The position numbers and the translations under genes were made by a program. Positions 16,218 through 57,019 of a stretch of 64,000 bases of DNA are shown piece after piece (positions within the stretch are counted from its first letter, which is position 1; each line of letters starts with the position of its first letter). The notes under the pieces are model-generated. The model did not search any database, was not told where the DNA came from, and saw only the letters and a program-made list of their open reading frames with translations. The DNA is from Chiloscyllium plagiosum (taxonomy: Eukaryota), in the NCBI RefSeq assembly GCF_004010195.1, contig NC_057718.1, positions 71,943,271 through 72,007,270 on the forward strand, in the 5' to 3' direction.

Positions 16218-16257
16218 CCACTGATGATGTTACCTAGCCAGGTAATGAAACATCTGG
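16218..16257 (+). ncRNA. Minimal type I hammerhead ribozyme motif (PLE terminus); inverted copy at 15456-15495
   Basis: CCA-CTGATGA-T-GTTACCT(AGCC)AGGTAAT-GAAAC-ATC-TGG: stem I CCA/TGG, conserved core and stem II. Confidence 0.75.
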
Positions 16258-34782: not shown

Positions 34783-35343
34783 TACTCTTTCTGGACTGTC
34801 TATTGATCACAAATTCCCTTCTTTCCTCTAGTCCCCTAAGCTGCATCCATGTGACTACTTCTCTAAACATGCTGTCCACAAAACTCAGCTTCATAGATGC
34901 GCCAAATTCCTCAAACTCAGAGAACCCGAGCTCCAGTTTCTGCAGCTTGGAGCACGTCCTGCACATGTGATCATCTAGGAAAGTGGCAGCATCCAGGGCT
35001 CCCCACATAGGACAAGCTACATATTCTGCTCGATGGGCCTCTCTTGACATTGCTGAAATTTACAATTAATGCCTTAGAATATTCGGCTTCCTACTCTAAG
35101 GTTGTGAGAAGGTTAACTATAATTAAGTTCACACTGCTCTAAATCTGTATGATAAGAAAGGATTAAGCAGTAATTCCCAAAGACCTTCACCAATTAGGAG
35201 CCTTTCTCACCTTTTCAAGTTATGACATCAACAGGAGCTGCACTGAAGATTCTCACAGTATTCCTGCAGTTTAGAGGTTACTGTGTCCCTCCTCACCTCC
35301 AACTGATGTTGCTCCTAACTAAATGCCTGTAAGGACTAGATCC

Positions 35344-36640
35344 TGTAGTTGTATTAACAAGGTCAGCAAGGTGGACTTCACAGAATGAGTACCCTGATGG
35401 GGGCAATGAATCTGGTCCAATCAGGGAGCCCTGTCTGACAGATATAAATAGATGTCTTGCATCTGCAGAGTTTCAATCATTGGTAATGCTTGTCATTCCT
35501 CTTGAGGGGTACACTGTAAGAAATGACATGGAGCATTGATACTTCCCCAGCTATAAGTTGAGTTCTTTTCTGCTGGATTTACTTTAAATGATTTCGTATG
35601 AAAATTGATCCATTTTATTATCAATTAAACAATTGGTAATTTAAAAAAAAACAGATGTCTTCCCGCAGGAGCCTGTGCCCCACAACCTGAGCCGCCTCCG
35701 GAATTTTAATTTTGTGTCATTTAGGGATATAAAAAGGAAAGCCCTGTATAGACTGCTGCTGCACACCGTCCACCTCTTCTCCCTCATCCACCGTCCGGAC
35801 ACGCCTTGGCGTGCCCATTTGCCACCGGGCGGTGGGGATCCCCAGTGGAGGGCTGAATACGCGGGAGTCCTCCCCCTTTCTCTCGGGGATCTGGAGTGGA
35901 GGGTGCTGCATGCAGCAGTCCCCTGCAACTGCAGGTTGCGGTGGTTCACGGACTCCCAACCCAACTGCTTGTTCTGTGGCGCTGTGGAGTCCGTGGACCA
36001 TGTATATATTGGGTGTGGGCGTTTGCACTCCCTTTTTGATTTCCTGAAAAACCTTCTCCTCTGTTTTTGGCTGCACTTCAGTCCCACGCTCCTGATCTTT
36101 GGGCACCCGGTACGGAGGAAGGAGGGCACGTCTGAAGACCTTCTCGTGGGTCTGCTCCTGGGCCTGGCCAAACTGGCCATCAACAGGTCCAGGCAGCGGG
36201 CCGTGGAGGGGGTCGTTAGGACCGACTGCCTGCCCCTCTTCCGCGGTTACGTTAGGGCCCGGGTGTCCTTGGAGAAGGAGCACGCGGTGTCCACTAACAC
36301 CCTGGAGGAGTTCAGGGAGAGGTGGGTGCCGCAGGGAGTGGAGTGCATCATTTCTCCCTCCAACTCTATTTTGATTTAGTCCCTACCCTCACCTTCACTG
36401 TTTTGATCACACAGCACTGCCCTTTGATGTGAAGGGTAGTGTTTGTCACTGGCCACCCGGGTGTTTTCCTATCTTCCTGGTGGTGGAAATTGAATAAAGA
36501 AAAAAAAAATAAACAGATGTCAGAGGTTTTGTTCAAATTGAGAGCTGGCTCCGAGAAAGTTGGATCAGTGTCAAGGACATTCCATGTAAAAATAAAAGGT
36601 CACTTTGTGACAGGATACTGGCCTCTGTAGAGTTATTTCA
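35344..36640 (+). mobile_element. Solo Gypsy-type LTR (TG...CA) interrupted by two retroinsertions just downstream of its TATA box
   Basis: TGTAGTT...TTATTTCA, CCAAT at 35417, TATAAA at 35443, AATAAA at ~36591. Homologous to the LTR at 50169-52447. Confidence 0.85.
35660..36510 (+). mobile_element. 5'-truncated Tx1-clade LINE (ORF2 C-terminal zinc-binding region, 3'UTR, poly(A))
   Basis: Open ORF 35675-36379 with DLEWRVLH..CLFCGAVESVDHVYIGC..LLLGLAKLAI. AATAAA plus A-tail. TSD AAACAGATGTC at 35649-35659 and 36511-36521. Confidence 0.88.
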
Positions 36641-36879
36641 GGCCCAAATCTGCACTGTACTAGATTTATAGGGTTACTGATTACTGTCTCCCTCCCTGGC
36701 TCCCGACTGTTGCTGCTCCAAGCTAAATGGCCTGTAAAGATCTAGCAGTCTTACTGACAATCTTGAAATTTGGACCCTAGTTACTGAGATACCATCTAAT
36801 GGAAACAGAATATTTTTCTCTCCAAAGTCAACATCTGAAAACAAAGGTTCTCTACTGACTAATCCTGCCAGACAACAGT

Positions 36880-37070
36880 GATTCCTGGCCATCAAAATCG
36901 GCGGACAGCCCTGGACACAATATACCATTTCACATATTTTGGGAGCTGCTTCTCAGTAAAAGTAGATGTTGACAATGCAATCCAACATCACCGCCAATTC
37001 GCCAGTATAGCTTTTAGACAGCCTGAACAAGGAGTCTTCAAAGTCCGAGACCTTAACAATACTGGAGGTT
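36880..37070 (+). mobile_element. Old RTE LINE fragment
   Basis: HFTYFGSCFSVKVDVDNAIQHHRQFASIAF resembles the RTE RT C-terminus. Confidence 0.6.
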
Positions 37071-37657
37071 AAATTTGGTCAGAGGAATTGTCTTAGCCTT
37101 AATACAGCATGCAGGTGAAAGTCCAGACTCTGTTAGATTGTCAAAAAACAAAGAAAACATGACTTGATTGATCTATTTCTCCCCCTGTAATCTACTTTGT
37201 CACTGGCTCAATGTTAACTTAAGCACAATAAAAACAAGTCCAGCACATGTAGTTTGTTATTCTCACTTTGTTATTCTCACATAATCCATTTCTAATACAG
37301 AGTTCATTAGTTCTGTATAGACATTATAGTGATTAAATTTATATGAAAACACGAGTTGGTATGAAGTGCATTTGATATGACGTGTATATCAGCTAAGGGT
37401 AGGTAGCAGGCATGAGTTGGCAGTGAATTGGTATGATTTATGCTATATAAAGATGCCATTTCAGCCATCAAATCCATTCAAAAAGATCAGCCTAATCCCA
37501 CCTTGCAGCTCTTGATCCCAGTCCAAACTAAATATTATCTAGTAAGTAGTTAATTGACTATTTGTTGTTAATTAAAGAAACACTACACGGAGGGTGATTA
37601 TATCTCAAAAGCATCATTTCAGAAAGTATGCAATTTATGAATGCCTGACTTACAAAT

Positions 37658-38384
37658 TTAAAAATCAGACAACACCAGGTTATAGTCCAAAAGGTTTATT
37701 TGGAAGCACTAGCTTTCATCAGGTGGTTGTGAAGCAGACCATAAAACACAGAATTGATAGCAAAAGATTACAGTGATACTATGACACATAGAACAAATCT
37801 CAGAACTTTTTTAAGTCACATTCTCAAGATAATTTAAGGTATTATAACAAAAGGTGACACCTCAGCTCAGACAATGCCTTAAAGGTGAGAGGTTAGAGCC
37901 TGTCTGGATCCTAATCTTGAGTCAGACTGGTTCTATTTCCAAAGTAGAATTTATAAATATTACATGGATTGACTACCTGCAATGAATTGGGTGAATTTGT
38001 ACTTGCAGATGCACTCTATTTTGCTGAAAAAAATGCAGAACCTGCAAGCAGTCAATGCAGGCAGTCAATCCCGGTAATATTTGTTAATTCCACTTTGGAA
38101 ATAGAACTAGTCTGATTCAAGATTGGGATACAGACAGACTCTAACCTCACACCTTTAAGGCACTGTCTGAGCTGAGATGTCACCTTTTGATGTTCAATGT
38201 ATCATTCTTTCACTGTAATCTTTTGCTAAAAATTCTGTGTCTTATGATCCTGCTTTATAATCACCTGATGAAGAAGCAGCACTTCAAAAGCCAGTGCTTC
38301 CAAATAAACGTGTTGGACTATAACCTGGTGTTGTGCGATTTTTAAACTTTGTCCACCCAGTCCAACACTGGCTCCTCCAAATCA
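37658..38384. mobile_element. Fold-back non-coding PLE derivative
   Basis: Roughly 300 bp inverted arms. 12 bp TSD TGACTTACAAAT at 37646-37657 and 38385-38396. Degenerate hammerhead core at ~38262-38296. Confidence 0.8.
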
Positions 38385-38537
38385 TGACTTACAAATGTTG
38401 TTACATATGAATGCAAATTCATACAAAGATGTAACTTTAAAGATCTGACATACGACTATTTCCTGAACTTACAAGCGACTCCTTTTTTTTGCCTTGCATT
38501 CTAATCCGACTTGCATACAAATCACAGACTCCAGAAA

Positions 38538-39380
38538 GGAGAAGGGCTAATGCCCGAAACGTCGATTCTCCTGTTCCCTAGATGATGCCTGACCTGCTGC
38601 GCTTTTCCAGCAACACATTTCCATCTAAGATAGCTGGGCAGGTAATAGGTAGATGAAGATGGGGGCGATTTGGTAGATCAGCAGGGAGAGTGAAACAGAT
38701 AGGTGGGAAGGAAGATGACAGGTAGGACAGTTCAAGTGGGCAGTGCCAAGTTGAAGGGTTAGATCTGGGACGAGGTAGAGGGAGGGGAGATTTGGCAACT
38801 GATGAAGTCGATGTTGATGCTGTGTGGTTGAAGGGTGTCATAGCGGAAGATGAGATGTTCTTCTCGATGACTGGCGGAGCCTCCCCACACCTCATCCCAA
38901 ATTCAACTGGGCACTGCCCTCTTGACCTATCCTACCTGCACATCTCCCTTCCCACCTCTCTGCCCCACATCCGGCTCTGACCTATCACTATCACCCCCCA
39001 ATTTGCATCTACCTATCACCTTCCCAGCTACCTCCCCCCCCCTCCACCCCCACCCGCACCCCCACCCTTTATCTATTTAACTCTAAGCCCCTTTCCCCCA
39101 CATTCCTGATGAAGGGCTTACACCAAAGTGTCGACTCTCCTGAATCTAGGATGCTGTTGAGTGTGTGTTGCTGGAAGAGCACAGCAGGTCAGGCAGCATC
39201 CGAGGAGCAGGGAAATCGGCGTTTCGATTTTCTTGCTCTTCAGATGCTACCTGACCTGCTGTGCTTTTCCAGCAACACACTTTCAACTCTGCAGCATCTG
39301 CAGACCTCACTGCTCCTAGGATGCTGCCTGACCTGCCACACTTTTTGACTCTCATCTCGAACATGTGCATCCTCACTTTC
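38538..39380. mobile_element. Cluster of PLE 3'-terminus fragments in both orientations
   Basis: Repeated GAAGGGCTxxTGCCCGAAACGTCG and GATGCTGCCTGACCTGCTG modules. Confidence 0.7.
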
Positions 39381-40286
39381 TCATAGAATCCACACAGTCC
39401 GGAAGTAGGTCAGTCGGCCCATCAAATCCACACCAACTCTCCGAACAGCACCCCATCCGGACTCACCGCTCTCCCCTCCCCTAAGGGGAGGTTTAAGACT
39501 GGTATTATAAAGAAGGGACTTCTCATATGTGCAGCAGAAAGTGGGGTTCGACAGTATTGTAGAGGTAGAAGTGTGAGTCATGAGGTCAGAATAAATGAGG
39601 GAAAAAAATGAAAGGTCTTTCTTCGCTTTTTATTTTTATTTTGTTTGTGTAACCAGCACTCAAATTATATGAAGATGGAGGGCAACTTCTCAAAAACCTT
39701 GAAAATTCAATAGTAAGGATGGCCAAGGATTATCTTCCAATTTTAGAGTGTTTCTCTCCCACATTTGCTGCTATTTGATAGAACAGCAAGAGGTTAAGAA
39801 AGGCAGCATAGTTGACTGAGTGAGTTGACAGAGTAGCCTTTTGTACGGATTAAAGATGCCATTCATTCAGTCATGGGTAGACTTTTGCCAGGTACAGGTG
39901 GGGGGTGGTCTATCTGGTGGAGAGGCTGTCTGCTGAGGATCATCCATTGCCAGGTCTAGGAGATCCCCTCCATTAGATATGGGGGCAGGAAGAAAGTGGC
40001 TACAAGAGGAGAGGAGGGATCAGGAAGGTATGAGAGGTGTGGAAGGGAAGAGGAGGCTTCAAGTGGGGTGTGAGTGATGAGATTTCAGGGGGTTGGAGAA
40101 GAAGAGAGCTACAAGAGGATTATGGGGAGAGTGTTGATGTTATGTTCCCAGCTGATGGTATTACAGGACACGTCTGTTTCTAGAATTTAAAGCTAGCAGA
40201 GTACATCTTTTTGAAAACTGTTAACATGATCTGTCACTGGGATATAAGGCTACAGGATGTATTTAACAGCAGAAGAGAGGTTTTCA

Positions 40287-40582
40287 AAGTTAGGGAGAAG
40301 ATTTGTAGCTCGGGTGCTCTTGTTGTGGTTCTGTTCGCGAGCTGGGAATTTGTGTTGCAGACGTTTCGTCCCCTGTCTAGGTGACATCCTCAGTGCTTGG
40401 GAGCCTCCTGTGAAGCGCTTCTGTGGTGTTTCCTCCAGCATTTATAGTGACTTGTATCCGCTGCTTCCGGTTGTCAGTTCCAGTGGTCCGCTGCAGTGGC
40501 CGATATATTGGGTCCAGGTCGATGTGCTTGTTGATTGAATCAGTGGATGAGTGCCATGCCTCTAGGAATTCCCTGGCTGTTT
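40287..40582 (-). mobile_element. Penelope-like 3' terminal fragment (same family as 21531-22365)
   Basis: High similarity to 21531-21830. Confidence 0.88.
40356..40396 (-). ncRNA. Intact-looking minimal type I hammerhead ribozyme
   Basis: GCA-CTGAGGA-T-GTCACCT(AGAC)AGGGGAC-GAAAC-GTC^TGC: CUGANGA core, GAAA, GUC cleavage triplet, stem I GCA/UGC, palindromic ACGU stem III. Confidence 0.85.
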
Positions 40583-41077
40583 AGCTCTCGATGTTGCACT
40601 GACCTATGGAACCAATCTGAAGCCCATCTAACCTGCACTATTCCATTCTTGTCTATATGCCTATCCAATGACCATTTAAATGCCCTTAAAGTTGGCGAAT
40701 CTAATACTGTTGCAAACAGTGTGTTCCAAACCCCTACTACTCTCTAAGTAAAGAAACTACCTCTGACATCTGTCCAATATCTATCACAAGGACACTTAGT
40801 TTCTGGCCACCTGCAGAATCCATCTATCACCTATCTTGTCTAAAAGCTTGAGCGGAGTGTTCATGACATGGGTGAGGATCTTTCCTGCTGTTGTTAACAG
40901 GGAAATTCCATGACAGTTTCCGCATTCAGATCGATTGCCTCTCCTTTAGTAACAACTGCTGAGTCTCTAAAGTCTGCTGGTACATCTTCATTTATCCAGA
41001 TCATGATGAGAAGTTGATGCAATTGGTAATGAAGCAAGTTACCTCCAATTTTGTACATCTCAGCTGGTATTCCATTG

Positions 41078-41174
41078 AGAGTCAAGATTAGTGGTGCTGG
41101 AAAAGCACAGCAGTTCAGGCAGCATCCGGCTAATCTTGACTCTGAGCTCCAGCATCTGCAGTCCTCACTTTCGC
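41078..41174. mobile_element. ~97 bp inverted PLE-terminus insertion
   Basis: 14 bp TSD CTGGTATTCCATTG at 41064-41077 and 41175-41188. Inverted AGAGTCAAGATTAG/CTAATCTTGACTCT. Confidence 0.85.
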
Positions 41175-41287
41175 CTGGTATTCCATTGTGTTCAGCGGCC
41201 TTGTCATTTTTCAAGGTTTTGATGGCTTCCTTGACTTCAAGCTAATATTTTTCTTAGGGAGTAGTCAACAGGCTGTTTTGGAATATT

Positions 41288-41634
41288 ATAGAATCAGAGA
41301 ACCCCTACAGTCTGGAAACAGGCCCTCCAGCCCAACAAGTCCACAACGACCCTCTGAAGAGTAACCCACCCAGACTCATTCTCCTACTCTATTACTCTAC
41401 AATTCCCCCTGACAAATGCACCACACCCACACATCCCTGAACACTTTAGCTTGGTTAATTCATTCCAACCTGCACACCTTTAGACTGTGGGAGGAAACCG
41501 GAGAACCCAGAGGAAACCCACACAGACACGAGGGGAGAACGTGCAAACTCCACACAGACTGTCACCCAGAGGGTGGAATCAAATCGCTGGCCCCGTGAGA
41601 CAGCAGTGCTAACCACTAAGCCACTGTGCCACCC
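41288..41634 (-). mobile_element. HE1 SINE forming the 3' end of the zinc-finger insert
   Basis: Reverse-complement HE1, head at 41634, CR1-like tail ending ~41288. Confidence 0.9.
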
Positions 41635-41736
41635 TTGAGCCATCGTGGTGATGGGGTGGCAGGTGAAGACCAGCAGAAAACAAAAAAAATCCCTCCAACT
41701 CTCCCACCGCACCCACTGTCAGAACGGGCAAGAGGT

Positions 41737-42240
41737 TCAGTCTTGGGGGTGACCCACAGCAGCGTCAACGGCAGAATCCGATTGTTGGGAGCACTGGTGC
41801 CCCCGCTAGTGCCTTCACAAGTTGCAGGTCAACATGAACCTGCGCTCACATTTGAGACGGCTGAAGGGCATATCCCCGGTGTGGACCCGCCAATGGGCCA
41901 GCAGGTGGGAAGAATTGCTGAAGGCCTTCCCGCACTCAGGGTAGCGGAAGGGTCATTCGCTGGTGTGGACCCACCGGTGGGCCACGACGTGGGTCAAGTG
42001 AGTGAAGCCCTTCGTGCACTCGGAGCAGCTGAATGGCCTCACCCCAGCGTGGACCAGTTCATGCCTCAATAGGTGGGAGGAATTGCTGAAGGCCTCCCCG
42101 CACTCAGGGCAGGAGAACGGCCTCTCCCCAGTGTGACTCTGCCGATGAGTCTCCAATACAGACAGGACATGGAATCCTTTCCTGCAGTCGCCACACTTCC
42201 ATGGTTTCTCAATGTGGCGGGGTTTCTCGGGTTTCTCCAT
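41737..42240 (-). pseudogene. C2H2 zinc-finger pseudogene/retrocopy (about 5 fingers, in-frame stops)
   Basis: [98 protein letters not shown]. Confidence 0.9.
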
Positions 42241-45200
42241 CGCCAAAGCTTCAGCCGCACACAAATGTGTACACAGCCCCTCCCCACCATGAATTCCTCT
42301 TTCCAGACTGTATAAATGTTTCAGGCTCCATACTCAGTGCACTGCAACAGTAGGGTCTCTCATCCAGTCCCACTGATGGTGGAAAAATACTAAAACAGGA
42401 ACCAAAAAGCTTTGCTCCTTCTCACAGAATCATAATCGAAAATTGTTGTGATTTGAAAGTGAGGACTGCAGACATTGGAAAGTCAGAGTCAAAAAAGCAT
42501 GGTATGGGAAAAGCACAGCAGGAAAGGCAGCAGCTCAGGAGCGGAAGAGTCAACATTTCGGGCACAAGACCTTCATCTGTTGGTTTTGAAACTTCCATTT
42601 CAGATCTTCAAACAATAGATGTTGGACAGAATGTTGTTGATCATATTCCCGTCAAAAGGGACGGTTTGATTTAGAAGATCTTCAAAGTGCTCTCTCCAAC
42701 CGGAATTGATGTCAGCACTGCTCTTCAGGATGGCTGAACAATTTTTGCTTTTGAGAGGGGCTTTGAGATGGGCCACAAATAGCTTTAGTTGTTGGCATCG
42801 CTTGTTGTTGGATTTCCTGAGCTTTCTTCCTCCACTATTGGTTTTTCAGGTTTCGGTGCTCTTCTGGACTGCCGCTGATTGGTGGTTATTTTGTAAGGTG
42901 GTGAAAGCTTTTCTCTTTTCATCGATAAGTTATTGGAGTAGTTTGTCATTATCATCAAACCAATCCTGATGGGTTTTTATCTTGAACCCAATAGGTTCTT
43001 TGCAGGAGGTGATGATAGCAGTGTTCTTCTACAGATGGTGGGATTTGAGGCAGTTGTTCTTGAAGATTTTGTTGGAACTTCTATACATGGTTGATGCCTT
43101 GAAGGATGCCAACACTGAATTTCTTGAAAATATTCTGATTTTGGTGTTTCCTTTTGAGCCGAATCTTCATTCTCATGGTGGACGAGATGAGTCGATGGTC
43201 TGCCCAGCACTCGTCGGCACCAGTAACAGCTCTTGTTATCAGTACATCTTGTTGGTCCCATGATGTAGTCGATGAGATGCCAGTGTTTGGGGTGTGGATG
43301 CTGCCAGGAGATTTTTTGTCTGTTTTTCTGACGAAATAGGGTGCTTGTAATCACCAGAGTGGGTTCAGCACATGTGGTGAGGAGGTCTGTTCTATTGGCA
43401 TTGACCTCGCCAACTCCTTAATTGCTTATCATTCCAGTCCAGAGCCTATGATCTTTTCCGACTCTGGCGCTGGAGTCTCCCAAGTCTCTTGTCGTAGTTG
43501 GGAACAGAGGAAAGGACGTCATCAAGTTGGGCATAGAAGTTTAATTTTTGGAGTTCCCGGGCAACAAAGGCAGTTCTCCTCTCTGGTCGGTCTGAGTTTG
43601 GGTTATCTTTCAGAGTTCGTATATTCCAGATTCCAAATTTCATAGCTTCATTTCTCAATGTTTTTCGATCGCATGGCGATGATCTCTTTGGATGTGGCTT
43701 TCCAGACAGGATGGGGTGAAGCAGGCTATTTTTAGGGCACCTCTTCTAGCCATCTCCTAGTTTAGGGTGAGCAGAGTGAATCCAAAATAGGGCTGCTCAG
43801 ACGTGAATACTGCAACCAAACAACTTTCCTGCTTCTGTCCAAAAGTTGAGCGACTGAATCAACTTTTCACTGCTTTCCTGCCGGTTCTTGACTAGGAACT
43901 TTCAGCCATCGCATTGCCTGCTCTCGTCGCTCTCCCCCGCTTGCCAAAAGACTTGAAGTGATCCACAGAACGAAGATGCCTGTGCGTGTATTTGTTTAAT
44001 ATGTACGTGATTATGCACTCCAAGAAGCACACAGCACTTCACAAATCAATCAACTGATTCCAATGGCATGGAAACCACGATGATTGGAGCTGATAGATTT
44101 GTTGCAGCCTTCATTCGCCTTCACACACGTTGAGTTCGGACTAACTTTGTCTCCCTGTTCCACCGTTGAGGTCTTGGTTGGACTGTTTTTCATCAGGGAC
44201 CTTACCGCCATACCAGAAGCATAGCTCCAGACGGCATCGTTCACGAGATCTCAGGACCACACAAGCTACTCCACAATGACAAGGTGACAATCACGGAGAG
44301 ATATCCACTTTTTACATGCTCAAAACAACTAGAAAAGTTAGGTTCTGAACTACCTTCTTGAAATGTATAATGTTTTGCTATTATGTGATGAGCTGAATTG
44401 TGGAAAACAGTCATTTTAGCATTAAAGTAATTTGCAGTCTCTGAGCAATTGTGATCTTGAGCCACAACACATTTTTGTCCTATAAAGCAGCTAAACCAGC
44501 TGGTTTTTATTCTGAAACCTTTGCTGGACTCAAGGAGTTCAACTTGGCTCATTTAAGTACCTACCCACATATTGCATTTTGGCTGACAACACAACCATTT
44601 TGACAATTTCCTATGACCGATTCCAATACATGTTTCTCAAAACTTCCTTTTCTCATAGTAGATTTGATCCTAAGCACCTTCTTCTCAGTAGATTCCTTGT
44701 TCTTTCATTTTTGCATCGACTCTTTCACTAACAGCAAACTCCCTCCACTGCAGAGTTTTTTGACAAGTTAGCAAATATTTTCCGTTTAAATTTGAAGTCA
44801 GTTTCACACTTCAATTGCTTTCTTGTGTACAGTCTACTCTGTGACTATGTCTCACATGTTTGTAACACAGACTGTACCGCTTGCTTTATCCTTTGCCCAG
44901 TAGTTAAAAAGTAAAGCATTCTTGTGTGGATTGAAAACATGAGGTTGACTGCAAGTATAGCACATTTGAGCTTGTAAAGGACTGACTTACACACTGAGAA
45001 AAGCAAAAAAAAAAAAAAAAATTGGGGGGCCACAAAAATGGTGTTGGCTTATATGCCATATCAAGTTTGTGTTGAAATCTACAGTATAAAAATGTATAAT
45101 CTTGGCACAAGGAAGCATCTGAAAGCTAACTGTGGATGTTCCATCATATCTTCCCATAAGGAAAACTCTGCATGATAAGAAGAGCACGCAAATCTAACTA

Positions 45201-45526
45201 AGGAGGTTCTGCAATGAATCCGTCATTATTTTGACAATATACAGAGTCAGCTTAATCTGATCAAGGTTTTCAACTGTATAATGTTGAAGTTAAATCTATA
45301 CTTTTAATGTTTAGGAAATTCATAAATCATTAATATTTTTTCGTAACTTAAATATTCAAAGTCTTTGATTCACAGAATTAGATGTCCTGCTTTTGTCTTT
45401 TTGATACACTTAATTAACAAAATTACATTAAATTATATTCATACTTAATATGATATCAGTTTTGGTAGAAGTACATATATGACCACAGTAATTTTCAAGT
45501 TAAAATTGCTGATCCAACCTCTGTAC

Positions 45527-45693
45527 CTGAGTAGGACTTTCCAGCGTGTAAATATGCTCTCCATGATTATTATAAAATTTAACAGCAGCATTTTTCACTA
45601 CTGGAAGACTTCCCGACTCATAAAGTTGACTCTCTTTTTCCATGCCTGCTACAGCAAGTAAGTTCCCCTGGCTGCTCCACTGTACAACTGCAT
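45527..45693 (-). CDS. TULP4: TULP4/TULP4-like internal coding exon (167 bp, phase 1/0), WD40 region
   Basis: ttctAG|AT GCA GTT GTA CAG TGG...CCT ACT CAG|GTACAG. Translates (D)AVVQWSSQGNLLAVAGMEKESQLYESGSLPVVKNAAVKFYNNHGEHIYTLESPTQ and is in frame with the preceding exon. Homologous to TULP4 VVAQWCTQGDLLAVAGMERQ...VKFYNVRGEHIFTL. Confidence 0.92.
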
Positions 45694-46989
45694 CTAGAAT
45701 AATAAGGTAGACAATAAAAGAATTACCACAATAAACTGACAAAGTACATCATTTAAGTTTTCAAAAATACAAACAATTGTTGCATAACTCAAAAGAAGTA
45801 TTTAAATGCTAGGTGTCATTTAATAAGTTCTTTATGTATTGAACAATAGACCTGAAACCTGTGGAAGGAAGGAGTTATTAATTATTATATACAGAAAGCA
45901 TTCATTGAAGTAATTGCATATGAAATACACAACTTATGTATGCAAAAATGCTTAAGTTTCACATAAAATCTCAAACTTATTCCATCTGTGAGGCAGTCGA
46001 AGTACATGGTTACCAGGGTCCTGTACTCTTCATCCAGCCATAACCTCCTTGTCTACACCCAAATAGCTGAGAGGACTGGCTCCATAAAAGCCAACTCAGA
46101 AATCAAAACATGTGAATATCAGAAGGGAAGAGGGAAGAACCACTCTCAATGATTTCATATATAATTTCGATACAGATAGCCTGCAACTAAAACGAAAAGT
46201 TTGAATCCATGATAACAATACAAATTGCTGGAAAAGCTCAACATGTGGAAAAGCTCAGCATCATCAATGGAAATAAATCAGAGTTAATGTTTTGGGTCCT
46301 CAGTTTGAACCTACGTACTGCTGTGCTTGTAACTACTTCAACTGTTCATTCTGATGCATTTATAAAACTTTAAAACAAGGTTCTGACTTAATATTTTTGT
46401 AGCAGGCCAAGCCTCTCCAACCGCCCAGATATATTCCCTGTACCTGACAAAGCGATCTGACAACTACTACTTTTCAGTGCAAAAGTGTTGTTGCCACAGT
46501 TTCACTTGCAATCATGCCGATTATAAAGCCACCACTCCAGCAGTCAAATTACTGCAGATGATAAAGTCCCTTACAGCTTCTATTCAAAAATCAATTCATG
46601 ACTTATATGTTGTGTAACATATTGTTCAACATTTCACTGTTGAAATCTGTCTCTGTTGTTAAATCATGTTCTTAAGGATTCACTCCATCTGCCTCTGTTT
46701 CATCCTTATGGTATTTAAAAAGCATTTATTGCTCATCCCTCGTGGCTATTGAGAATGTGTTGATGAGCTGCCTTCTTGAATTATCGTTGTCAATGTGCTG
46801 TACATAGAGTTACAACACAGTTATGGAGGAATTTGAAGCAAAGATACTTAAAGAAGGCCCATATTTTTCCACATTACGATGGTGATTGACTTGTAAGGGA
46901 ACTTGCAGTGCGTGGGAATCCCATGTATCTGATGCCCTCGTCCTTCGTTTGTGGGTTTGGAAGGTTCTGGTTGAGGAACTTTAGGGAAC

Positions 46990-47550
46990 AGGTTCAATTC
47001 CAGACTGTGTGTGGAGTTTGCACATCTTTGGGTTTCGTCCAAAGATGGGCGGCACGGTGGCACAGTGGTTAGCACTGCTGCCTCACAGCGCCAGAGACCC
47101 GGGTTCAATTCCCGACTCAGGCGACTGACTGTGTGGAGTTTGCACGTTCTCCCCGTGTCTGCGTGGGTTTCCTTCGGGTGCTCCGGTTTCCTCCCACAGT
47201 CCAAAGATGTGCGGGTCAGGTGAATTTGCCATGCTAAATTGCCCGTAGTGTTAGGTTAAAGGGGTAAATGTAGGGGTATGGGTGGGTTGCGCTTCGGCGG
47301 GTCGGTGTGGACTTGTTGGGCCGAAGGGCCTGTTTCCACACTGTAAGTAATCTAATGTGCAAGTTAGGTGGACTGGCTACGTTGAGTTGCCCATAGTGTC
47401 CTGGGATGTGTAAGTTAGAGAACTATGAATGGGAAATGTAGGATTACAGGGATAGGGTACTGGAGGGCGAGCTTGGGAGGGATGCTCTTCGGAGAGTCTA
47501 CTTGTGGACTAGTTGGACCAAATGGCCCGTTTCCAACTGTAGGGATTCTA
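46990..47550 (+). mobile_element. Nested HE1 SINEs: a consensus-like full copy (~47047-47356) inside an older copy
   Basis: The inner copy starts GGGCGGCACGGTGGCACAGTGGTTAGC and retains CpGs. The outer copy continues on both sides. Confidence 0.88.
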
Positions 47551-47924
47551 TGCAAAAGCTGACTGCTCAGTACCAAGGTTCAGGCCATCTGCTCAATGCT
47601 GGAGAGGATCTCACAGTGTGATGGGTAGGATCCAATCATTGTTGTTTTGGTCAACCAATGTCATGGGCATTGCACGGCCAGTAATCTATTTGATCTATTC
47701 ATTGGATGTGATCTTCACTGATTTGGCCAATACTTATTGGTATCCCTATTAGCCCTTCAAAAGCGGGTGGTAAGATGCCTACTTGAACCACTGGAATCTG
47801 TTCAGTGTAGGTATAACTAGAATGTTTTTAGAAATGGAGTCCCAGGATTTTGACCCTTAAAGTGGCACAAAAGGAACAGCAATATATTTCCAAGTCAGAA
47901 TGATGCATGGCTTGAAGAGAACCT

Positions 47925-48224
47925 CAAAGTTTGGGTGAAGATTTGTAGCTCGGGTGCTCGTTGTTGTGGTTCTGTTCGCCAAGCTGGAAATTTTTGTTGC
48001 AAACGTTTCATCCCCTGTCTAGATGACATCCTCAGCTATACCGGCCACTACAGCGGACAGCTGAAACTGACAACCGGAAGCAGCAGGGACAGGCCACTAT
48101 AAATGCCGGAGGAAACACCACAGAAGCGCTTCACAGGAGGCTCCCAAGCACTGAGGATGTCACCTAGACAGGGGACGAAACATTTGCAACAAAAATTTCC
48201 AGCTCGGCGAACAGAACCACAACA
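47925..48224. mobile_element. PLE termini in inverted arrangement, each with a hammerhead motif
   Basis: 13 bp TSD TTGAAGAGAACCT at 47912-47924 and 48225-48237. Cores at ~47998-48036 (-) and 48148-48187 (+). Confidence 0.88.
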
Positions 48225-48499
48225 TTGAAGAGAACCTGTAGACCATGGTGTCCCCATCTCTCTGCTGCCATCTTCAATTTTGATGGAGAGCAAATCTATT
48301 TGGGGGCAGGCAGGAATATGGATTAATTAGATCAGCAATAATTTTGTTGAATAGCAGAATGAGAGCAAGACACTAAATCCTGCTCCTAATTCATATGCTC
48401 ACATGTAGATTAATCGCCAGTCACACCTTATGACACTGGTGCTCCCTTGCCAGTACAGGATGCCTCCAAGTTCACATTGGCCTGACGTCTAAATCCAAT

Positions 48500-48825
48500 C
48501 CAGCACAGTGGCTCAGTGGATAGCATTGCTGCCTCACACAGTCAGGGACCAGTTTGATTCCACCCTCGGGTGACTGTCTGTGTGGAGGCTGCACATTCTC
48601 ACTGTGTCTGTCAGTGTTTCCTTCCAGGTGCTCTGGCTTCCTCCCACAGTCCAAATTTCCCACAGTGTTCAGGGATGTGCAGGATGGGTGAGTTAGCCAT
48701 GGAAAATGCAGGGTTACTGGATAGGATAGGAGGTGGTGGGTCTGGGTGGGATGCACTCCAGAGCGTCAGTTTGAACTTGATGGGCCAATTGGCCTGTTTC
48801 CACGCTGTAGAGATTTTTTGAATCT
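48500..48825 (+). mobile_element. HE1 SINE
   Basis: Head and tail motifs. Confidence 0.82.
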
Positions 48826-49559
48826 ATTTTACTACAAATAAGGCATGGTGATCATTATGAGATATTTTAATTTAGGGACTTTATGAGCAGTTTATCTTTT
48901 TTTTCAGGCTAACTGCTTAGAACAGCATAATCTGCAGCCAACCAGACAGCAGACTATTTTAGACCTTGTTCTGTAGAATTAATTAATTATACCAAAGTGA
49001 AGAGGGTAGCAGCAACCATAATATGATTGAATTTTACAATTAGTTTGAGGGAGAGAAGTGTGGTTCTGAGACTTTTATCAGATATATATGAGGGCAACAG
49101 AACTGGTATAGTGAACTGGGAAATTAGCTTAAAGAATAGATAAAGAGAGATAGTGGCAGACACTTAAGGAGATAATTCATAATAACCAGAACAGATACAT
49201 TCCAAAGAGTAACAAAGATTCACCCACCAACCATGGTTAATTGGAAAGATTCAAGATTCAAACTTAAAAATAGCATACAGTGCAAATACTGGTGGCAGCT
49301 CAGAAGATTGGACATTAAAAACGACCAACCAAAAAATGAATAAAAGGAAAATTAGAGCATGAGAGGAGGTTAGTCAGAAATATAAAAACAGAAAATTGGC
49401 TACGTAAAAATATTGAAAAGAGGAAAGTTAACAAAGTGATCTGAAATTTATCTGAAGAATAAGTAAGTATTTTGCATCCGTTTCCACTGCAGGTAACACC
49501 CCAGAAGCAGCCACAAATCAGGAAATGGAAGGTGACGAGATGTCAGGAATGTCATAATC

Positions 49560-49897
49560 ACTGAATCCCCAGTGTGGAAACAGGTCGTTTGGCCCAACAA
49601 GTCCACACCAACCATCTAATGAGTATCCTACCCCAGAGTTGTCCCCTATTCTATCCTTGTAACTCTGCAATTTCCTGTGGTTATTGCACCTAATCTACAC
49701 ATCCCTGAACACTATGGAGAATTTAGCATGGCCAATCCACCTAAACAGGGACATCTTTGGACTGTGGGAGGAAACCAGAATACCTGAAGGAAACCCATGC
49801 AGACATGGGGAGAACATGTAAACTGCACAGAGACAGTCATCTAAGGTTGGGATCAAACCTTTGCACTGTGACGCAGCAGTGTCAACCACCGAGCCAT
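49560..49897 (-). mobile_element. HE1 SINE
   Basis: Reverse-complement head and tail motifs. Confidence 0.82.
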
Positions 49898-50282
49898 TCC
49901 AGAATTAGTACGGGACAAATTATTTGAGCTGCAAGCTGAAAAGTATCTAGGTCCTGTTGGATTTCAACCAAAGGACTTTAAAAAGTGGTTAGAAAGATAT
50001 TGGTTTTAACTTCCAAATTTCTCTTATATCAATAAAGGTCCCATTAAATTGGCAGCTAGTAAATGATGATAAAGACATAGAATATGCAAAGTTGTAGGAA
50101 AGAAACTGCAACCATATTTGTAACCATGGAAATGGTCAGCTCAGAGAAAAAAAATGAGAGGCAAACTGTGTAGTGATTGTAATGAGGTCAGCCAGATAGA
50201 CCTCAGAATAAGAGTTCCCTGATTGGGTCTGTTAATCTGGTCCAATCAGGGAGCCCCAACTGACAGATATTAAAGGTGCATC

Positions 50283-52300
50283 TCTGGCCAAACTGTCCAT
50301 AAACAGGTTCAGGTAGCAGGCCGTGGAGGGGGTCATTAGGGCCGACTGACTGCCCCTCTTCCACGGTTACATTAGGGCCGGGGTGTCCTTGGAAAGGAGC
50401 ACGCGGTGTCCACCAACACCCTGGAGTTGTTCAGGGAGAGGTGGGCGCCGCAGGGAGTGGAGTGTATTATTTCCCTCTCCAATTCGATTTAATCTCTGCC
50501 CTCCCCTTCACTGTCTGCTCGCACAGCATTGCCCTTTGATGAGAAGGGCACTTCTTGTCACTGGCCTTTCGGGTGTTTCCTTTCTTCCTGGTGATGGAAA
50601 CCGAATAAAGATTTGTGCACCTTGTATCTTTCACTGTGTCCCACACCTGCACACACACAACATGGGTGCTGGGGGAAAAAATAAGCACTACCGCAGTTAG
50701 GCAGTAGTGTGGGGATTAAAAAAAACCCAGAAGGGTCACACCAGGACACACAAAAAAAAAGAAAAAAAAAAAAAAGAGTATCCCTGGCCAAACTGGCCAT
50801 AAACAGATCCAGGCAGCAGGCCATGGAGGGGATCGTTAGGGCCGACTGCTTGCCCCTCTTCCGCGGTTACGTTAGAGCCTGGGTGTCTCTGGAAAAGGAG
50901 CATGCAGTATCCATCGACACCCTGGAGTTGTTCAGGGAGAGGTGGGCGCCGCAGTGAGTGGAGTGTATTACTTCCCTCTCCAATTCGATTTAATCTCTGC
51001 CCTCCCCTTCACTGTCTGCTCGCACAGCATTGCCCTTTGATGAGAAGAGCACTTCTTGTCACTGGCCACTCGGGTGTTTCTTTTCTTCCAGGTAGTGGAA
51101 ATTTGAATAAAGATTTGTGCACCTTGTGTCTCACACCTGCACACACACAACATGGGTGCTGGGGGAAAAAAAATAAGCACTACCGCAGTTAGGCAGTAGT
51201 GTGGGGGTTAAGGGAAAAAAACTGTAAAAAAAATATAAGAGATGCATTCCTGGCCAAACTGGCCATAAACAGGTCCAGGCAGCAGGCTGTGGAGGGGGTC
51301 ATTAGGGCCGACTGCCTGCCCCTCTTCCGTGGTTACGTTAGAGCCCGGGTGTCTCTGGAAAAGGAGCACGCGGTGTCCACCAACACCCTGGAATTGTTCA
51401 GGGAGAGGTGGGCGCCACAGGGAATGGAGTGCATTATTTTCCTCTCCAACTCTATCTTGATTTGATCCCTGCCCTGCCCCTCACTGTTTGATCACACAGC
51501 ATTGCCCTTTGATGACACAGCATTGCCCTTTGATGTGAAGGGCACTGCTTATCACAGGCCACTCGGGTATTTCCTTTCTTCCTGGTGGTGGAAATTTGAA
51601 TAAAGATTCATGCACCTTGTGTCTTTCACTGTGTCTCACACATGCTTGGGTGCTGGGGAAAACATAAGCACTACCACAGTTAGGCGGTAGTGTGGGGGTA
51701 AAAAGAAGAAAAAAATAGAAAAAAAGAATAAAAAAGATAAACAGGAGCGTCAGAGGTTCTGTTCACTCTAAGAGCTGGCTCTGAGGGACCTGGATTAAGG
51801 ACTCTCCATGTGTAAATAAAGGGCGACTTGGTAAGAAAAAAAAAAGAAATAAAAGGAGTATCCCTGGCCAAACTGGCCATAAACAGGTCCAGCGGGCAAT
51901 GGAGGGGGTAGTTAGGGCCAACTTCCTGCCCCTTTTCCGCGATTATGTTAGAGCCCGGGTGTCTCTGGAGAAGGAGCACGCAGTGTCCACCAACACCCTG
52001 GAGATGTTCAGGGAGAGGTGGGCGCCGCAGGGAATGGAGTGTATTAGTTCCCCGTCCAATTCTATTTTGATTTAACCCCTGCCCTGCCTTTCACTGTTTG
52101 ATCACACAGCATTGCCCTTTGATGTGAAGGGCACTGCTTGTCACTGCCCACGCGGGTGTTTCCTTTCTTCCTGGTGGTGGAAATTTGAGTAAAGATTTGT
52201 GCACCTTGTATCTTTCACGGTGTCTCACACCTGCACACACCTGCTGAGAAAAAAATAAGCACTACTGCATTTAGGCGGTGGTGTGGGGTTAAAAAAAAGA
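50283..52300 (+). repeat. Tandem array of four ~430-450 bp Tx1-derived 3' units inside the LTR (starts 50283, 50783, 51249, 51863)
   Basis: Each unit starts (C/T)CTGGCCAAACTG, is homologous to ~36163-36500 plus ~100 bp extra 3' sequence, and ends in an A-rich tail followed by a copy of the LTR target motif. Confidence 0.92.
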
Positions 52301-52761
52301 ACAGAAGTGTCAAACATCCTGTTAAAAAAATAAAAAAGGAGTATCAAAGGTTCTGCTCACTCAGAGCTGGCTCAGTATCGAGATCTCTCCACATTTCAAT
52401 AGAGGGTGACTTGGTGACGGGATACTCGCCTCTGTTGAGTCATTTCAGTGATAACAAGAGAAAGCATACCCCCGAAGAAATTCGCTTACAACTGTCATCT
52501 GGGGTAAATAGTTCTGGCAATATTCCTTTATTTGGAACGTTTGACTTGTTTGAACCTGCCAGTATGTGGAAGGAATGCAATATCTTTCTGGGCAAATGAC
52601 ACTGGGACAGATGAAAACCAAAAGGCAATTCCTCTGACAGCTTGTGGACCCACAGCTTTTTCAATTATTAGGAGCCTGGACACCCCTGCCAGTCTGACCA
52701 AGCATGGGGAATACCACCTGAGTGAAAGCAATTCCATAGCCTCACTCAGGACACTCAGTGT

Positions 52762-53100
52762 GGGCAGCACGGTGGCTCAGTGGTTAGCAGTGCTGCCTCA
52801 CAGCGACAGGGATCCAGGTTAAAGTCCCACCTCCAGCGATTGTCTGTGTGGAGTTCGCACATTCTCCCAATGTCTACATGGGTTTCGTCTGGGTGCTCCG
52901 GGTTCTTCCCACAATCCAAAGATGTGCATGTTAGGTGAACTGGCCATGCTAAATTGCCTATAATGTTAGGTGCGTTAGTCAGAGCTAAAATATAGGGTAG
53001 GGGAATAGGTCTGGATGGATTACTCTTCAGAGAGTCAGTGTGGACTTGTTGGGCCGAAGGGCCTGTTTCCATACTATAGGGAATCTAATCTAATCTAATC
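52762..53100 (+). mobile_element. HE1 SINE in Gypsy gag
   Basis: Full head and (TCTAA)n tail. Confidence 0.9.
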
Positions 53101-53268
53101 ATATCCTGAACACAGGGACTTTAATTCAGCCCACTGCAAAACCCCAAAACAAAGCCAAGGCTCAGCCATACAGTTAAAACTTTCTTCAGAATCCGGGTCA
53201 GCAAGCTATTGCAATTGTTGCCAGTATGTGGACTCCAGACAGCAAGAGAATCACACTAAATCTAAATT

Positions 53269-53423
53269 TAAAAATCACACAACACCAAGTTATTGTCCAA
53301 CAGGTTTAATTGGAAGCACACTAGCTAGTGTGCTTCCAATTAAACCTGTTGGACTATAACCTGGTGTTGTGTGATTTTTAACTTTGTACACCCCAGTCCA
53401 ACACCGGCATCTCCGAATCATAG
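53269..53423. mobile_element. Near-perfect hairpin PLE-terminus insertion
   Basis: 56 bp arms about the axis 53324/53325. TSD ATCTAAATT at 53260-53268 and 53424-53432. Confidence 0.85.
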
Positions 53424-54984
53424 ATCTAAATTGAATGAGAGAACTCATAGGCTGGTACCCAGGAGAGTGCACAACCTGGAAAGTCCACCGACATCTGGTT
53501 TGGAACAGTTAAATTGCATCGCATCATCCAAATTAAAATCAAAGTAAATGTCTGATTAAATGGTCACCTGATTCTAATGGATGTTGATACCACTGCTTCT
53601 GTTTCCGTGATTGCAGAACCAGTCTTTAACAAAATTCTGGACTCCAACCTTTACGTTTGTGCAAGACCTCAGCTAGACTATGAACCCATTACAGTTTAAG
53701 GTTAAAAGTTTGGTTGTTGTTGTTGTGTTGCCATAATCTTACCAGACCATAGGACTGCTCTCTCATTAGAGAGAGAAGGGATTGGTGGTGATTTACCCTG
53801 AGGGCCACCATACCTCAGGTGAGGGAAGACATTGAGAAGGAGAGTCCTTCATGGTAACCTCAAAACAGTGATGGGAATTGAACGCACACTATTGGTATCA
53901 CACTGCTCTATAAACCAACAATCCAGCCAACTGAACCGAACCAATTCCCACACATTTGGTTCCGGTCTCATATGAGGGGCAAGATGGTTATCATTGATTG
54001 TTACCCCGAATGACCTACTTGGGCTCCAGAGTCGAAAAGACCGGGTTGCATGTGTTGTAAGATAAAGTGAGGGTGATCAAAGTTGTGAACAGAAGATCAG
54101 TGAAACAGTGTCACCTGCCATACAGCCTCAGACTTGTTCCTTCAGTCACTGTTGCAGATGTCAGACTGGCCTTCTTGAGAATGAACCCATGGAAAGCCCA
54201 GCCCAAGCTCGATGGGTTGAGAAAGATTCACTTAGATTGGCTCCACATATTTTGCTTAGAAAATGTCTGCCTAATTGAAGTCTTAATTAAATACTTGAGT
54301 GTTTTTCATGAAGGTCGAGACACTATCAAAGGAGTCAAAGCCACCTTGCATGTTGACCAGGAAGCAATTCCACGATTCTGCAAAGCATGTGCAGTGCCAA
54401 TTGCCTTCAAGGCAAAAGTAGAGGCAGAAATCAGAACGGTAGAAAGCAAACGAATCATCAAACCAGTCTAGTTTATGGAATGGATAGCACTGGTCGTACA
54501 GATTGTGAAGCTCAACTGGTCAGTTAATCTTTGTGGGATTTTAAACTGTAAACCGCTCTTCACAGCTAGATAAATACCCAATCCAATAAGGCAGTCTTGA
54601 AGGTGGATATGAGCCATATATACTTACAATTGTGATTAGATGAGGACTTCCAGAAGTTTGCTACATTAATATGCATTAATAGTTTATACCAATGTACAGC
54701 ACTGCAATTTGGTGTATCTGCAACCTATAGGGACCATGGAGAACATTTTGCAAGGTTTACCTCAGGTTGCTATTTATCTAGATGACATGCTAATAACTGG
54801 GAACACTAATAAGGAGCACTGAGAGAATGTGGATATAGTCCACAGATATTTTTCCCAAGTGGGCACATGCCTTAGAAGGGAAAAACGCGTGTTCCAGGCA
54901 CCCCGAATGACCTACTTGGGCTCCAGAGTCGACAAGACCGGGTTGCATCTGTTGGAAGATAAAGTGAGGACGATCAAAAGTGTG

Positions 54985-56500
54985 AACAGAAGATCAGTGA
55001 AACAGTAATACCAGCCATGACAGCATTGGATGTACCTGTTCCCTCAGTCACTGCTGCAGACACCAGATTGGCCTTCTTGAGAGTGAACCCATGGAAAGCG
55101 ACTGGCCCAGATGGATTCCCCGGCTGTGCATTTAGATCCTATGTGAACCAGCTTTGTTGACATCTTTAAACTCTCCTTGCCAGGATCTGAAGTCTCCACC
55201 TGCTACAAGAAGACCACCATCCTGGTACCAAAGAAAACATATGTAATGTGCCTCAATGACGACTGCCCACTGGTTCTCACCTCCATAATTATGAAGTGCT
55301 TCAAGACGTTAGTTGTGACTCATATCAACTCAAGCCTCCCAGCCTACCTCGATCCCTTGCAATTTGCCTACCAGCACAACAGGCCTACAGCAGACACCAT
55401 CCCCCCAGCCCTACACTCATCCCTGGAACATTTGGATAATAAGGATACCTACATCAGGTTTCTATTTATTGACTACAGCTCTGCCTTCAACATTATAATC
55501 CTAACCAAAATAATCTCCAAACTCCAAGACTAGGTCTCTGCTCCACCCTCTGCAACTGGATTCTTGACCCACAAACCGCAATCAATGAAAAGAAGCAACA
55601 ACACCTCCTCCATGACAACCCTCAACGCCAGCACTCCACAAGGATATGTACGTCCCCCCGTCTACTATACTCCCTGCACACTCATGACTGTGTGGCCAAA
55701 TTTCATTCGAACTCTACCTGCAAGTTTGCTGACGACTGTTCAGAGTCAGATATCAAACAATGATGTGTCAGAATAAAGGAAAGAGAGAGTGCTTGATAGC
55801 ATGATATAAAGATAACAATCTCTCCGTCAACATCAGCAAAATTAAAGTGCTGATCATTGACATCCCGAAGCAAGGAGGGCATGCTCCTATTCACATTGAT
55901 GGCGCTGAATGGAGGTGGATAACAGCATCAAGTTCCTGGAAGTGATGATCTGTTCTGGACCACCCACGCTAATGTGACAGTTAAGAAGGCATAACACCTT
56001 TTCTTCCTCAGGAGGCTAAGGAAATTCAGCATGTCCATAAGGACTGTCGCCAATTTTTATCAATGCAACATAGAAAGCATTCTATCTGGATGCATCACTG
56101 TTTGGTACAGCAAAAGCTCTGCCCAGGCTGTAAGAAACTGCAGCCATCCTTCTACACATTGGCTGCATCTATACTTCTTGATGCCTTAGAAAGACAGCCA
56201 ACATCGAAAACCTCTCTCACCCTGGTTATGACGTCTTCCAAAGTCTTCCATCAAGCAAAAGATACAAAAGCTTAACCGCATGTACAGTATTTCTCCCGTA
56301 CCCGCCAGAGTACATTTCAAGACCTACCACGGAAGCCTGAAACCATGGATAGGCACAAACTCATTCATTTAAATGGGAAATTTACCTTCCTGGCAGCGTC
56401 TGGGTTCTGGAAGGTTCCCTTTGATATGCTTGGGCTGTGGTAAACCCCAGGTAACTAAAACCGCAGATGCGGCGGTCGACCTGTACCAAAACGTTCAAAA
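54985..56500 (+). mobile_element. Rex1/Babar-type LINE RT fragment nested in Gypsy
   Basis: ORF 55177-55533 [39 protein letters not shown]. Confidence 0.85.
56285..56483. mobile_element. Possible Tc1/mariner (Tigger-like) MITE
   Basis: TA|CAG...CTG|TA boundaries interrupting the Rex1 tail. Confidence 0.45.
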
Positions 56501-57019
56501 CTGGTCACGTTGGCAAGTCAAAGTTGTCAGGGAAGTGAAGAAACAGCTCTCACCTTCTAAGGTGTTGGCATACTATGATCCCAAGTGAGATCTGGTATTG
56601 AAATGCAATGCTTCCCCATACAGCATCAGGGTAGTATTAGTACAATGGAGAGGAACATCCAACAGCATACTCATCCAGGACTTTGACTAATGCAAAGTGT
56701 AAATACACCTAGATAGAGAAGGAAGGTTTGGTGGTCATATACGGAGTCAGGAAGTTACACCAATACCCTAATGGATGTAAGTTTGTAATAATAACGGACC
56801 ACAGACAGGTCAATTAAAGAGGACAAAGCAGTGCCACCCATAGTTTTAGATCCGACCATTGAATTCACTCTGAAGCTAAGTGTGTAAAATTACAAGTTGG
56901 AACACAATCCAGAAGGCCAAGTAGCAAATGCGGATGCATTGAGACAACTACTATTAGCAGATACATACCGGGGCTACCATCACTGGAAGAGTCCATAACG
57001 ATTTTAAATTTTCTGGACA

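Follow-up and report, generated by a model that had tools for sequence, protein, structure and literature searches.

The subject of this report is a 64,000-nucleotide stretch of the genome of the shark Chiloscyllium plagiosum (NCBI RefSeq assembly GCF_004010195.1, contig NC_057718.1, positions 71,943,271 to 72,007,270; hereafter the window), in which a long interspersed nuclear element (LINE) of the Tx1L lineage lies at one site of an old Gypsy-type long terminal repeat (LTR). The targeting of this LTR site by the LINE is real, and it is probable that the insertion is completed by pairing of the complementary DNA (cDNA) downstream of the nick. The site, the orientation, the target duplication, the 5' heads carrying LTR R sequence or else a tag that comes from the 3' untranslated region (UTR) of the LINE itself, and the stacks of copies with the same 5' end were observed directly.

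A TG...CA repeat of ~236 bp is present twice in the window, at 35344-36640 (LTR-A) and 50169-52447 (LTR-B). As the initial annotation of the window had noted, both copies are broken at one point by sense inserts; these are poly(A)-tailed and open the LTRs 8 nt 3' of TATAAA or TATTAAA. The target variant AAA(C/T)AGATGTC has three copies in the whole window, at 35446, 35649 and 36511, and the Tx1 sequence is confined to the two LTRs as had been claimed, since all five Tx1 3' ends in the window lie there. The possibility that both loci are one segmental duplication, which the same annotation had raised against its own reading, was not supported: the two LTRs are ~25% diverged (77% alike in the left halves and 72-75% in the right halves), their immediate flanks are unlike, and their Tx1 copies have different start points.

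Across the genome, an 18-mer from the LINE 3' UTR has 6,362 exact matches and an 18-mer from the LTR has 1,878, with none for the reversed controls. The LINE was sampled by taking the first 100 motif matches on one contig (C1), which form 69 clusters; eight with N upstream were set aside, leaving 61 readable loci. At 30 of these the LINE directly adjoins the LTR left half at one position (95% interval 36-62%), and the count becomes 36 with six further LTR sites, in which another A-tailed insert came first (L154, L182, L189), the LTR half is duplicated (L157) or a sister LTR is involved (L135, L177). Two possible LTR sites, L156 and L133a, are unconfirmed and were left out of the counts. An antisense LINE at the target was seen in none of the 69 clusters. 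The single preferred site in one LTR family, proposed from the window, is thus borne out genome-wide, and the LINE exceeds the 20% of flanks that the accessible text of PMC4494074 uses to recognize a target-specific Tx1 family. A diverged sister LTR subfamily is struck at the homologous site in L135, L177 and possibly L156.

Sampling from the LTR side, by position, gave 5 of 30 LTRs that hold the LINE at the site and a sixth that holds another A-tailed insert; L065 and L074, also among the 30, are interrupted further in by other sequence. Nine of the 30 closest copies from the first search, the window's own counted, lie in the LTR. The exact LTR 18-mer is kept in only 3 of 30 filled LTRs, which suggests ~15,000-19,000 LTR copies with a wide error. 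If 50,000 to 7,000 copies are assumed, the enrichment at the target is roughly 10,000- to 70,000-fold. Junction counts (359 for A-tail plus target, 645 for the empty target) were not taken as occupancy, because the pattern lengths differ and stacked or transduced copies are recounted.

The specificity is leaky, and this weighs against our interpretation: 25 of the 61 loci are unrelated or unresolved and were not placed in the LTR site. Where loci were listed without an LTR left half, a duplication was found in 13 of 27, 11-18 bp long and with an A/T-rich motif at its start. Such A/T-rich duplications, and the ~40% of loci outside the LTR, would fit an absence of any dedicated targeting, with a generic L1-like preference for T-rich nicks meeting an abundant LTR. 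This explanation is extremely improbable, and the enrichment refutes it for any LTR copy number that is not wrong by orders of magnitude. About half of the loci fall at a single position of the 236 bp repeat, the AATAAA region of the LTR itself was not hit in any of the 30 sampled LTRs, and the head of full-length copies carries target-adjacent sequence.

The LTR copies have a median identity of 74% and the LINE copies are 91% alike, suggesting that most insertions entered old, probably inactive LTRs; the harm to an active host element that the initial annotation proposed is therefore not supported. The same figures bear on whether a composite of LTR and LINE was spread by a Gypsy element or by segmental duplication. 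Both window loci do belong to one LTR family, but the 5' starts, target variants and flanks vary among loci and the identities of the two components differ, so that composite spread is refuted and its probability is next to nothing. Segmental duplication, or hitchhiking inside a Gypsy element, was likewise rejected as the origin of the two window loci on their differing starts, target variants and flanks. Copies outside the LTR site often carry a transduced LTR-type target after the tail (L136, L138, L143, L166, L172, L173), as does the third Tx1 copy of LTR-B in the window, which suggests that many donor copies sit in LTR sites.

For the identity of the LINE, a long but broken genomic copy (L032) served as the source of the second open reading frame (ORF2), the endonuclease and ORF1. 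Its ORF2 piece is 55% identical over 515 amino acids to Xenopus laevis Tx1L (YTX2_XENLA, P0018), its endonuclease N-terminus is 53% identical (E=4e-23), and it matches RVT_1 with E=2e-25. The reading frame of the window LINE (35660..36509) is 49% identical to residues 1057-1291, the C-terminus, of Xenopus Tx1 ORF2 (E=5e-54), with a weak zf-RVT match that falls short of the Pfam cut-off (E=5e-4). The layout of ORF2, with an N-terminal apurinic/apyrimidinic endonuclease (APE), a reverse transcriptase (RT) and a weak C-terminal zinc-binding motif, matches that of the Tx1 clade, and poly(A) tails, 5' truncation and target site duplications are all present in the LINE copies. In an ORF2 tree of 26 rows, all of them Tx1-like matches, midpoint-rooted with no L1 outgroup, the LINE joins Xenopus Tx1, stingray, sturgeon and turtle sequences with support 100/99, while Tetraodon, Danio and alligator rows stand apart; its membership of the Tx1 clade, assigned earlier from the window alone, is upheld. 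Upstream of ORF2 an ORF start is present; most of that ORF is N in L032 and it has no Pfam match. At ~7760-7780 of L032, beside the junction of tag and head described below, a stretch of the 3' UTR resembles the reverse complement of the target and may be a secondary nick site.

The position of the nick can be read from the duplication. The LTR sequence that follows the A-tail begins with TAAAC or AAAC. The left junction lies at or near the end of GGAGTGTC; the duplication is therefore ~14-15 bp long and starts within the TATA box, as in LTR-A, where the duplicated target is TAAACAGATGTC at 36510-36521. In the standard model of target-primed reverse transcription the first, bottom-strand nick marks the start of the duplication, which would place that nick in TATAAA. 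We read the +8 position as the 5' junction of the second strand, with the first nick inside the TATA box. The initial annotation had the LINE landing between TATA box and start site; as a location for the cut, this is not supported by the start of the duplication.

A nick within the TATA box in a fixed orientation would also be expected if the LINE were steered by TATA-binding protein (TBP) or by transcription at active LTR promoters and not by a sequence preference of its endonuclease. We regard this as very unlikely. TATAAA is intact in 10 of the 30 LTRs that are filled and in 7 of the 24 that are empty (p=0.78, a comparison that later decay of the TATA box could blur), so that dependence on an intact TATA box is not supported; TAAGAAC variants of the target also receive insertions, and off-target duplications, too, begin at A/T-rich motifs.

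The copies are often stacked, with at least two LINE units in 37 of the 69 clusters. Pairs of units have an exact 5' start in common far more often within loci (82/391, 21%) than between them (113/18,719, 0.6%), and 25 of the 37 multi-unit loci have a shared start, where 5,000 permutations gave a mean of 5.6 and a maximum of 12. Similar targets have different starts across loci, so microhomology to the target does not explain the shared starts. Same-start units differ in their 3' ends and transduced tails (L180 alone contains nine such units), and each of the four LTR-B copies in the window is more similar to some copy elsewhere (91.6-93.7%) than to the others in its stack (86.8-91.5%), suggesting that the units are mostly separate events. 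Over the first 40 nt, rare variants are shared at 8.1 per 1,000 sites, and further in at 2.6 (37 loci, p=6e-5), compared with 0.45 between loci. In L218, two units have a rare base in common at 22 nt and a subfamily switch ~20 nt further on.

Several observations count against reading all of these stacks as independent insertions with an inherited 5' end. The starts were defined by BLAST on one reference and one of them, 7739, recurs at 7 loci; part of the start sharing may be artefact or microhomology. The rate of shared rare variants beyond 40 nt still exceeds the background, and L163 and L219/L220 contain near-identical multi-kb repeats, so duplication or local read-through must occur too; some stacks (L163, L168, L219/L220) are DNA duplicates or local read-through. 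The growth of arrays by DNA-level tandem duplication or unequal exchange after a single insertion would account for these repeats and for pairs in which rare variants are shared throughout (L152, L159, L168). As a general rule, however, it is rejected as decidedly unlikely and explains a minority, because the 3' end, the A-tail and the transduction are particular to each unit and the pair differences beyond 40 nt (7.8-9.5%) are close to those between loci (12.5%).

The targeting could also be as we propose while the same-start stacks come from read-through RNA of the locus or its LTR promoter, reinserted at its own site. The excess of shared variants beyond 40 nt, the alternation of two starts in L176 and the duplicated LTR-right pieces in L134 and L157 are consistent with this. 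But the window copies are nearer to other loci than to one another, and units with one start carry foreign target copies and have different bases at subfamily-diagnostic sites; own-site reinsertion is unlikely, although not far-fetched. We prefer separate insertions that take over the 5' end of a resident copy.

New units seem to enter mostly upstream. Of 40 arrays examined, 38 are untied, and in 27 of these the first unit has fewer rare variants than the last (p=0.014). In L131, L176 and L187 the junction of the left unit carries, by eye, the first bases of the right neighbour and not of the LTR, matching the inference of insertion into a 5' duplication made for tandem R1 elements in the accessible text of PMC2718515. 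Against this order, the age polarity in same-start sets alone is 18:11 and not significant, transduced older neighbours can produce the same gradient between first and last units, and in LTR-A the distance is 5% between the left insert and its source and 2-3% between the right Tx1 copy and its nearest kin, a misfit to strict upstream addition. Same-start stacks also occur at non-LTR sites (L161, L169, L148, L168). At G000:C4:14399256-14400554 (L184) there are eight target copies, five of them at ~30 bp spacing, which represent a run of very short insertions or duplications.

The 5' ends of full-length copies connect the LINE to its target. The 5'-end pattern has 235 exact matches, and 42 of 43 heads were analysed (L239, with no head match, was dropped). 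All 42 hold a 12-nt block, by selection, and 24 also hold a 13-nt block; these blocks lie ~51 and ~36 nt into the LTR R region, respectively. Taken from the head of L216, both blocks occur together and in order in 9 of 24 empty LTR R regions, compared with 0 of 4,800 shuffles. In 4 of the 42, target and R are joined directly to the head, and in 38 a piece of the element's own 3' UTR stands in front, mostly with one end point; the fusion that forms this tag is fixed, ~130 nt short of the element's 3' end. A second head pattern gave 44 matches, 43 of the R type. A one-base variant found in 15 of the 44 second-pattern heads listed is absent from 30 plain R regions, suggesting that this part of R was inherited with the LINE. 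In L243 and L250 the order is LTR left half, target, R, head and ORF1. L243 and L245, on different contigs, have a double head in common (R piece, A-tail, target, head), which we take, from its structure, as evidence of read-through RNA begun in the LTR R region or earlier.

Whether the LTR promoter drives the donor RNA of the LINE stands at about even odds: the anatomy fits and a predicted ladder of starts is absent. The promoter gain put forward in the initial annotation is supported indirectly, by the LTR R sequence in full-length heads. Among 24 heads that continue into the 5' UTR, 16 sit in LTR arrays (2 of them probable) and 2 are unreadable, by eye. Three results weigh against our interpretation. 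The other 6 of these heads sit, again by eye, outside LTRs; one L245 unit includes bases from within the target, which fits a transcription start upstream of the TATA box; and the 12-nt ladder of starts predicted from repeated LTR-driven transcription, plausible by eye, was not found among all units (p=0.45) or heads (p=0.29) and was dropped. One single-cell poly(A) run shows deep sense coverage of the LINE 3' UTR at L218, which priming on the genomic A-tail could also yield, and the one usable raw run mapped no transcription start sites, with a head depth of 1-3.

These observations can be joined in one scheme. The APE endonuclease would nick the bottom strand in TATAAA and prime reverse transcription of a poly(A) RNA, sometimes using cellular RNAs in trans. 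The top strand, from a few to ~40 bases (sometimes more) past the duplication, would then pair with the cDNA and prime the second strand. In an empty LTR, the LTR R would pair with the R-derived head of the LINE, and the TATA box and start region would be rebuilt ahead of the LINE. In an occupied LTR, pairing with the resident copy would let the newcomer take over the resident's 5' end. New copies would enter mostly the upstream target copy, and donor RNAs would often come from LTR arrays and read through A-tails, probably driven, with the even balance given above, by the LTR promoter. The now dominant self-tagged head was likely created by fusion of a head to a resident's 3' UTR, and the tag would supply full-length RNA with a match to resident copies. 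A single rule of downstream pairing thus explains both the heads and the same-start stacks.

A bolder version can be put forward only tentatively, at somewhat less than an even chance. A promoter-less APE LINE would live on a dead LTR; it would nick the TATA box, use the LTR start region as its head and have the promoter rebuilt by downstream-homology joining at each full-length insertion. Later, as targets filled, it would have swapped this head for its own 3' UTR and thus been joined to, and transcribed through, its own truncated copies. If this is true, thousands of arrays would document how strand invasion downstream of the nick primes the second strand, a matter not yet settled for APE-type LINEs, the class to which human L1 belongs. 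The LINE family supplies thousands of natural junctions, stacked by age, in which downstream homology probably sets the 5' end, and so makes the second-strand question testable at scale. For these elements the use of a branched intermediate remains to be determined, according to the accessible text of PMC6895275. The LINE and the LTR are linked through a captured core-promoter segment, and the target site, cut by an endonuclease with a preference of ~15 bp, gathers retrocopies of cellular RNAs.

One such retrocopy is in the window. The initial annotation explained the three target copies of LTR-A by two successive Tx1 insertions; the insertions are indeed independent and the right one is Tx1, but the first insert (35459-35641) is not. 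Its single other genomic match (95%) has a 3' splice-site-like sequence ~20 nt upstream and ATTAAA a little ahead of the position at which the A-tail begins, and there is no A-tract at that source; on these grounds a second Tx1 copy was rejected. No RNA record is listed for the source. The insert most plausibly represents a cellular RNA end that was copied into the target in trans. Unrelated A-tailed pieces, which have polyadenylation signals and are bounded by the local target, were also seen in L189 (~2530-2770) and L180 (~4320-4590). All three are likely retrocopies of cellular RNA ends, the source being traced for the window case only. A second A-tailed family with a GC-rich repetitive body occupies the LTR target site in four loci (L059, L064/L154, L182 at ~1020-1740 on its minus strand, and L194) and may be another LINE, or a short interspersed element (SINE) moved by the Tx1 enzyme.

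The features of the two window loci are given in Table 1. The LTR-B stack consists of four Tx1 copies with a common 5' start and a polyadenylated piece of another LTR copy (51737-51850); from its composition, the segment 51737..51862 is likely a 3' transduction from a donor in another LTR. The host repeat has the Ty3/Gypsy arrangement, in which protease, RT and RNase H come in that order after a TG...CA LTR. In the internal region next to LTR-B, read with stops as X, RVT_1 (E=4e-14) is followed by RT_RNaseH (E=3e-12; RT_RNaseH_2 also matched), which sustains the Gypsy assignment; the protease motif was identified by eye. Neither an integrase match nor a second LTR partner for LTR-B was seen within the window.

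Table 1. Coordinates of the interrupted LTRs and the adjoining internal region in the window
Feature	Position	Strand	Remark
LTR-A left half: U3, CCAAT-like and TATA motifs, first target copy	35344..35456	+	TATAAA 35443-35448
Retrocopied 3' end, likely of a cellular polyadenylated RNA, in trans	35459..35641	+	2 extra bases 35457-35458
A-tail and second target copy (AAACAGATGTC 35649-35659)	35643..35659	+	
5'-truncated Tx1L-lineage LINE: ORF2 C-terminus with zinc-binding motif, short 3' UTR, A-tail	35660..36509	+	
Third target copy (36510-36521) and LTR-A right half (R/U5); solo LTR	36510..36640	+	
LTR-B left half and target; TATTAAA 50268-50274	50169..50282	+	
Tx1 copy 1 with A-tails, short extra piece, target copy	50283..50782	+	
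Tx1 copy 2, 5' start as copy 1	50783..51248	+	
Tx1 copy 3, 5' start as copy 1	51249..51736	+	
Foreign target copy and LTR R piece, AATAAA then A-tail; local target copy last	51737..51862	+	71% to LTR-B right half
Tx1 copy 4, 5' start as copy 1, A-tails, last target copy	51863..52345	+	
LTR-B right half (R/U5)	52346..52447	+	
Decayed Gypsy-type internal region: protease-like motif, RT, RNase H; broken up by other repeats	52448..56900 (end approximate)	+	

Some other features of the window were recorded. A degenerate direct repeat of ~80 bp lies on both sides of LTR-A (35270-35340 and 36665-36750), and no clean LTR target duplication was seen there. The decayed Gypsy pol contains a 200 bp duplication (54003-54197 and 54900-55099, 86%). 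A C2H2 zinc-finger array lies at 41953-42333 on the minus strand (Pfam zf-H2C2_2, E=2e-15), with finger-like sequence continuing to ~41750, and an ORF at 63307-63849 on the plus strand looks by eye like an L1-type ORF1, with no match in a Pfam search.

LTR targeting by Tx1 families is already published for crocodilians: in the accessible text of PMC4494074, two families (Tx1-8_Crp and Tx1-4_AMi) prefer LTR retrotransposons. In the tree of that paper they cluster with Keno, whereas the shark LINE clusters with Tx1L, so a separate origin is likely. The same source describes Tx1L as inserting into the DNA transposon Tx1D of Xenopus laevis, lists Keno, Kibi and Koshi as further target-specific families, and reports tandem SINEU-3 insertions and possible transcription from the flank (Tx1-Mar, SINEU). 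Tx1L and the shark LINE share a lineage and the habit of targeting another mobile element, but the target of Tx1L is a piggyBac-type element and that of the shark LINE is the TATA box of an LTR. The target-derived head of the shark LINE was not met in the accessible text on Tx1L (PMC4494074). We found no literature on the shark LINE, its target, a downstream-derived head or the inheritance of truncation points; this search did not take in Repbase, Dfam, subscription papers or the supplements of PMC4494074, so that absence from print is not shown.

The R1 and R2 elements of the 28S rRNA gene offer a closer parallel for the mechanism, since target sequence on the 5' end of their RNA gives precise junctions (PMC2718515, PMC6895275, accessible text). 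In the same texts they resemble the shark LINE in a 14 bp duplication, in tandem R1 arrays formed through a 5' duplication and in a microhomology-primed second strand, but the sequence they carry comes from upstream of the nick, whereas that of the shark LINE comes from downstream (LTR R or a resident copy). Because the carried sequence is downstream-derived, the duplication would be effectively extended and 5' truncation points would be inherited in the shark LINE. Its target also differs, being a dispersed, decayed LTR and not the 28S rRNA gene. HeT-A of Drosophila telomeres forms head-to-tail arrays too, and its RNA begins with a tag from the 3' UTR of the upstream neighbour; to our knowledge it has no endonuclease-defined site, and the tag of the shark LINE differs in being the fixed fusion described above. 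The habit of inserting at an LTR site is by itself a new example of known Tx1 behaviour, and the novel part is the combination of a target-derived head with 5' ends inherited through homology.

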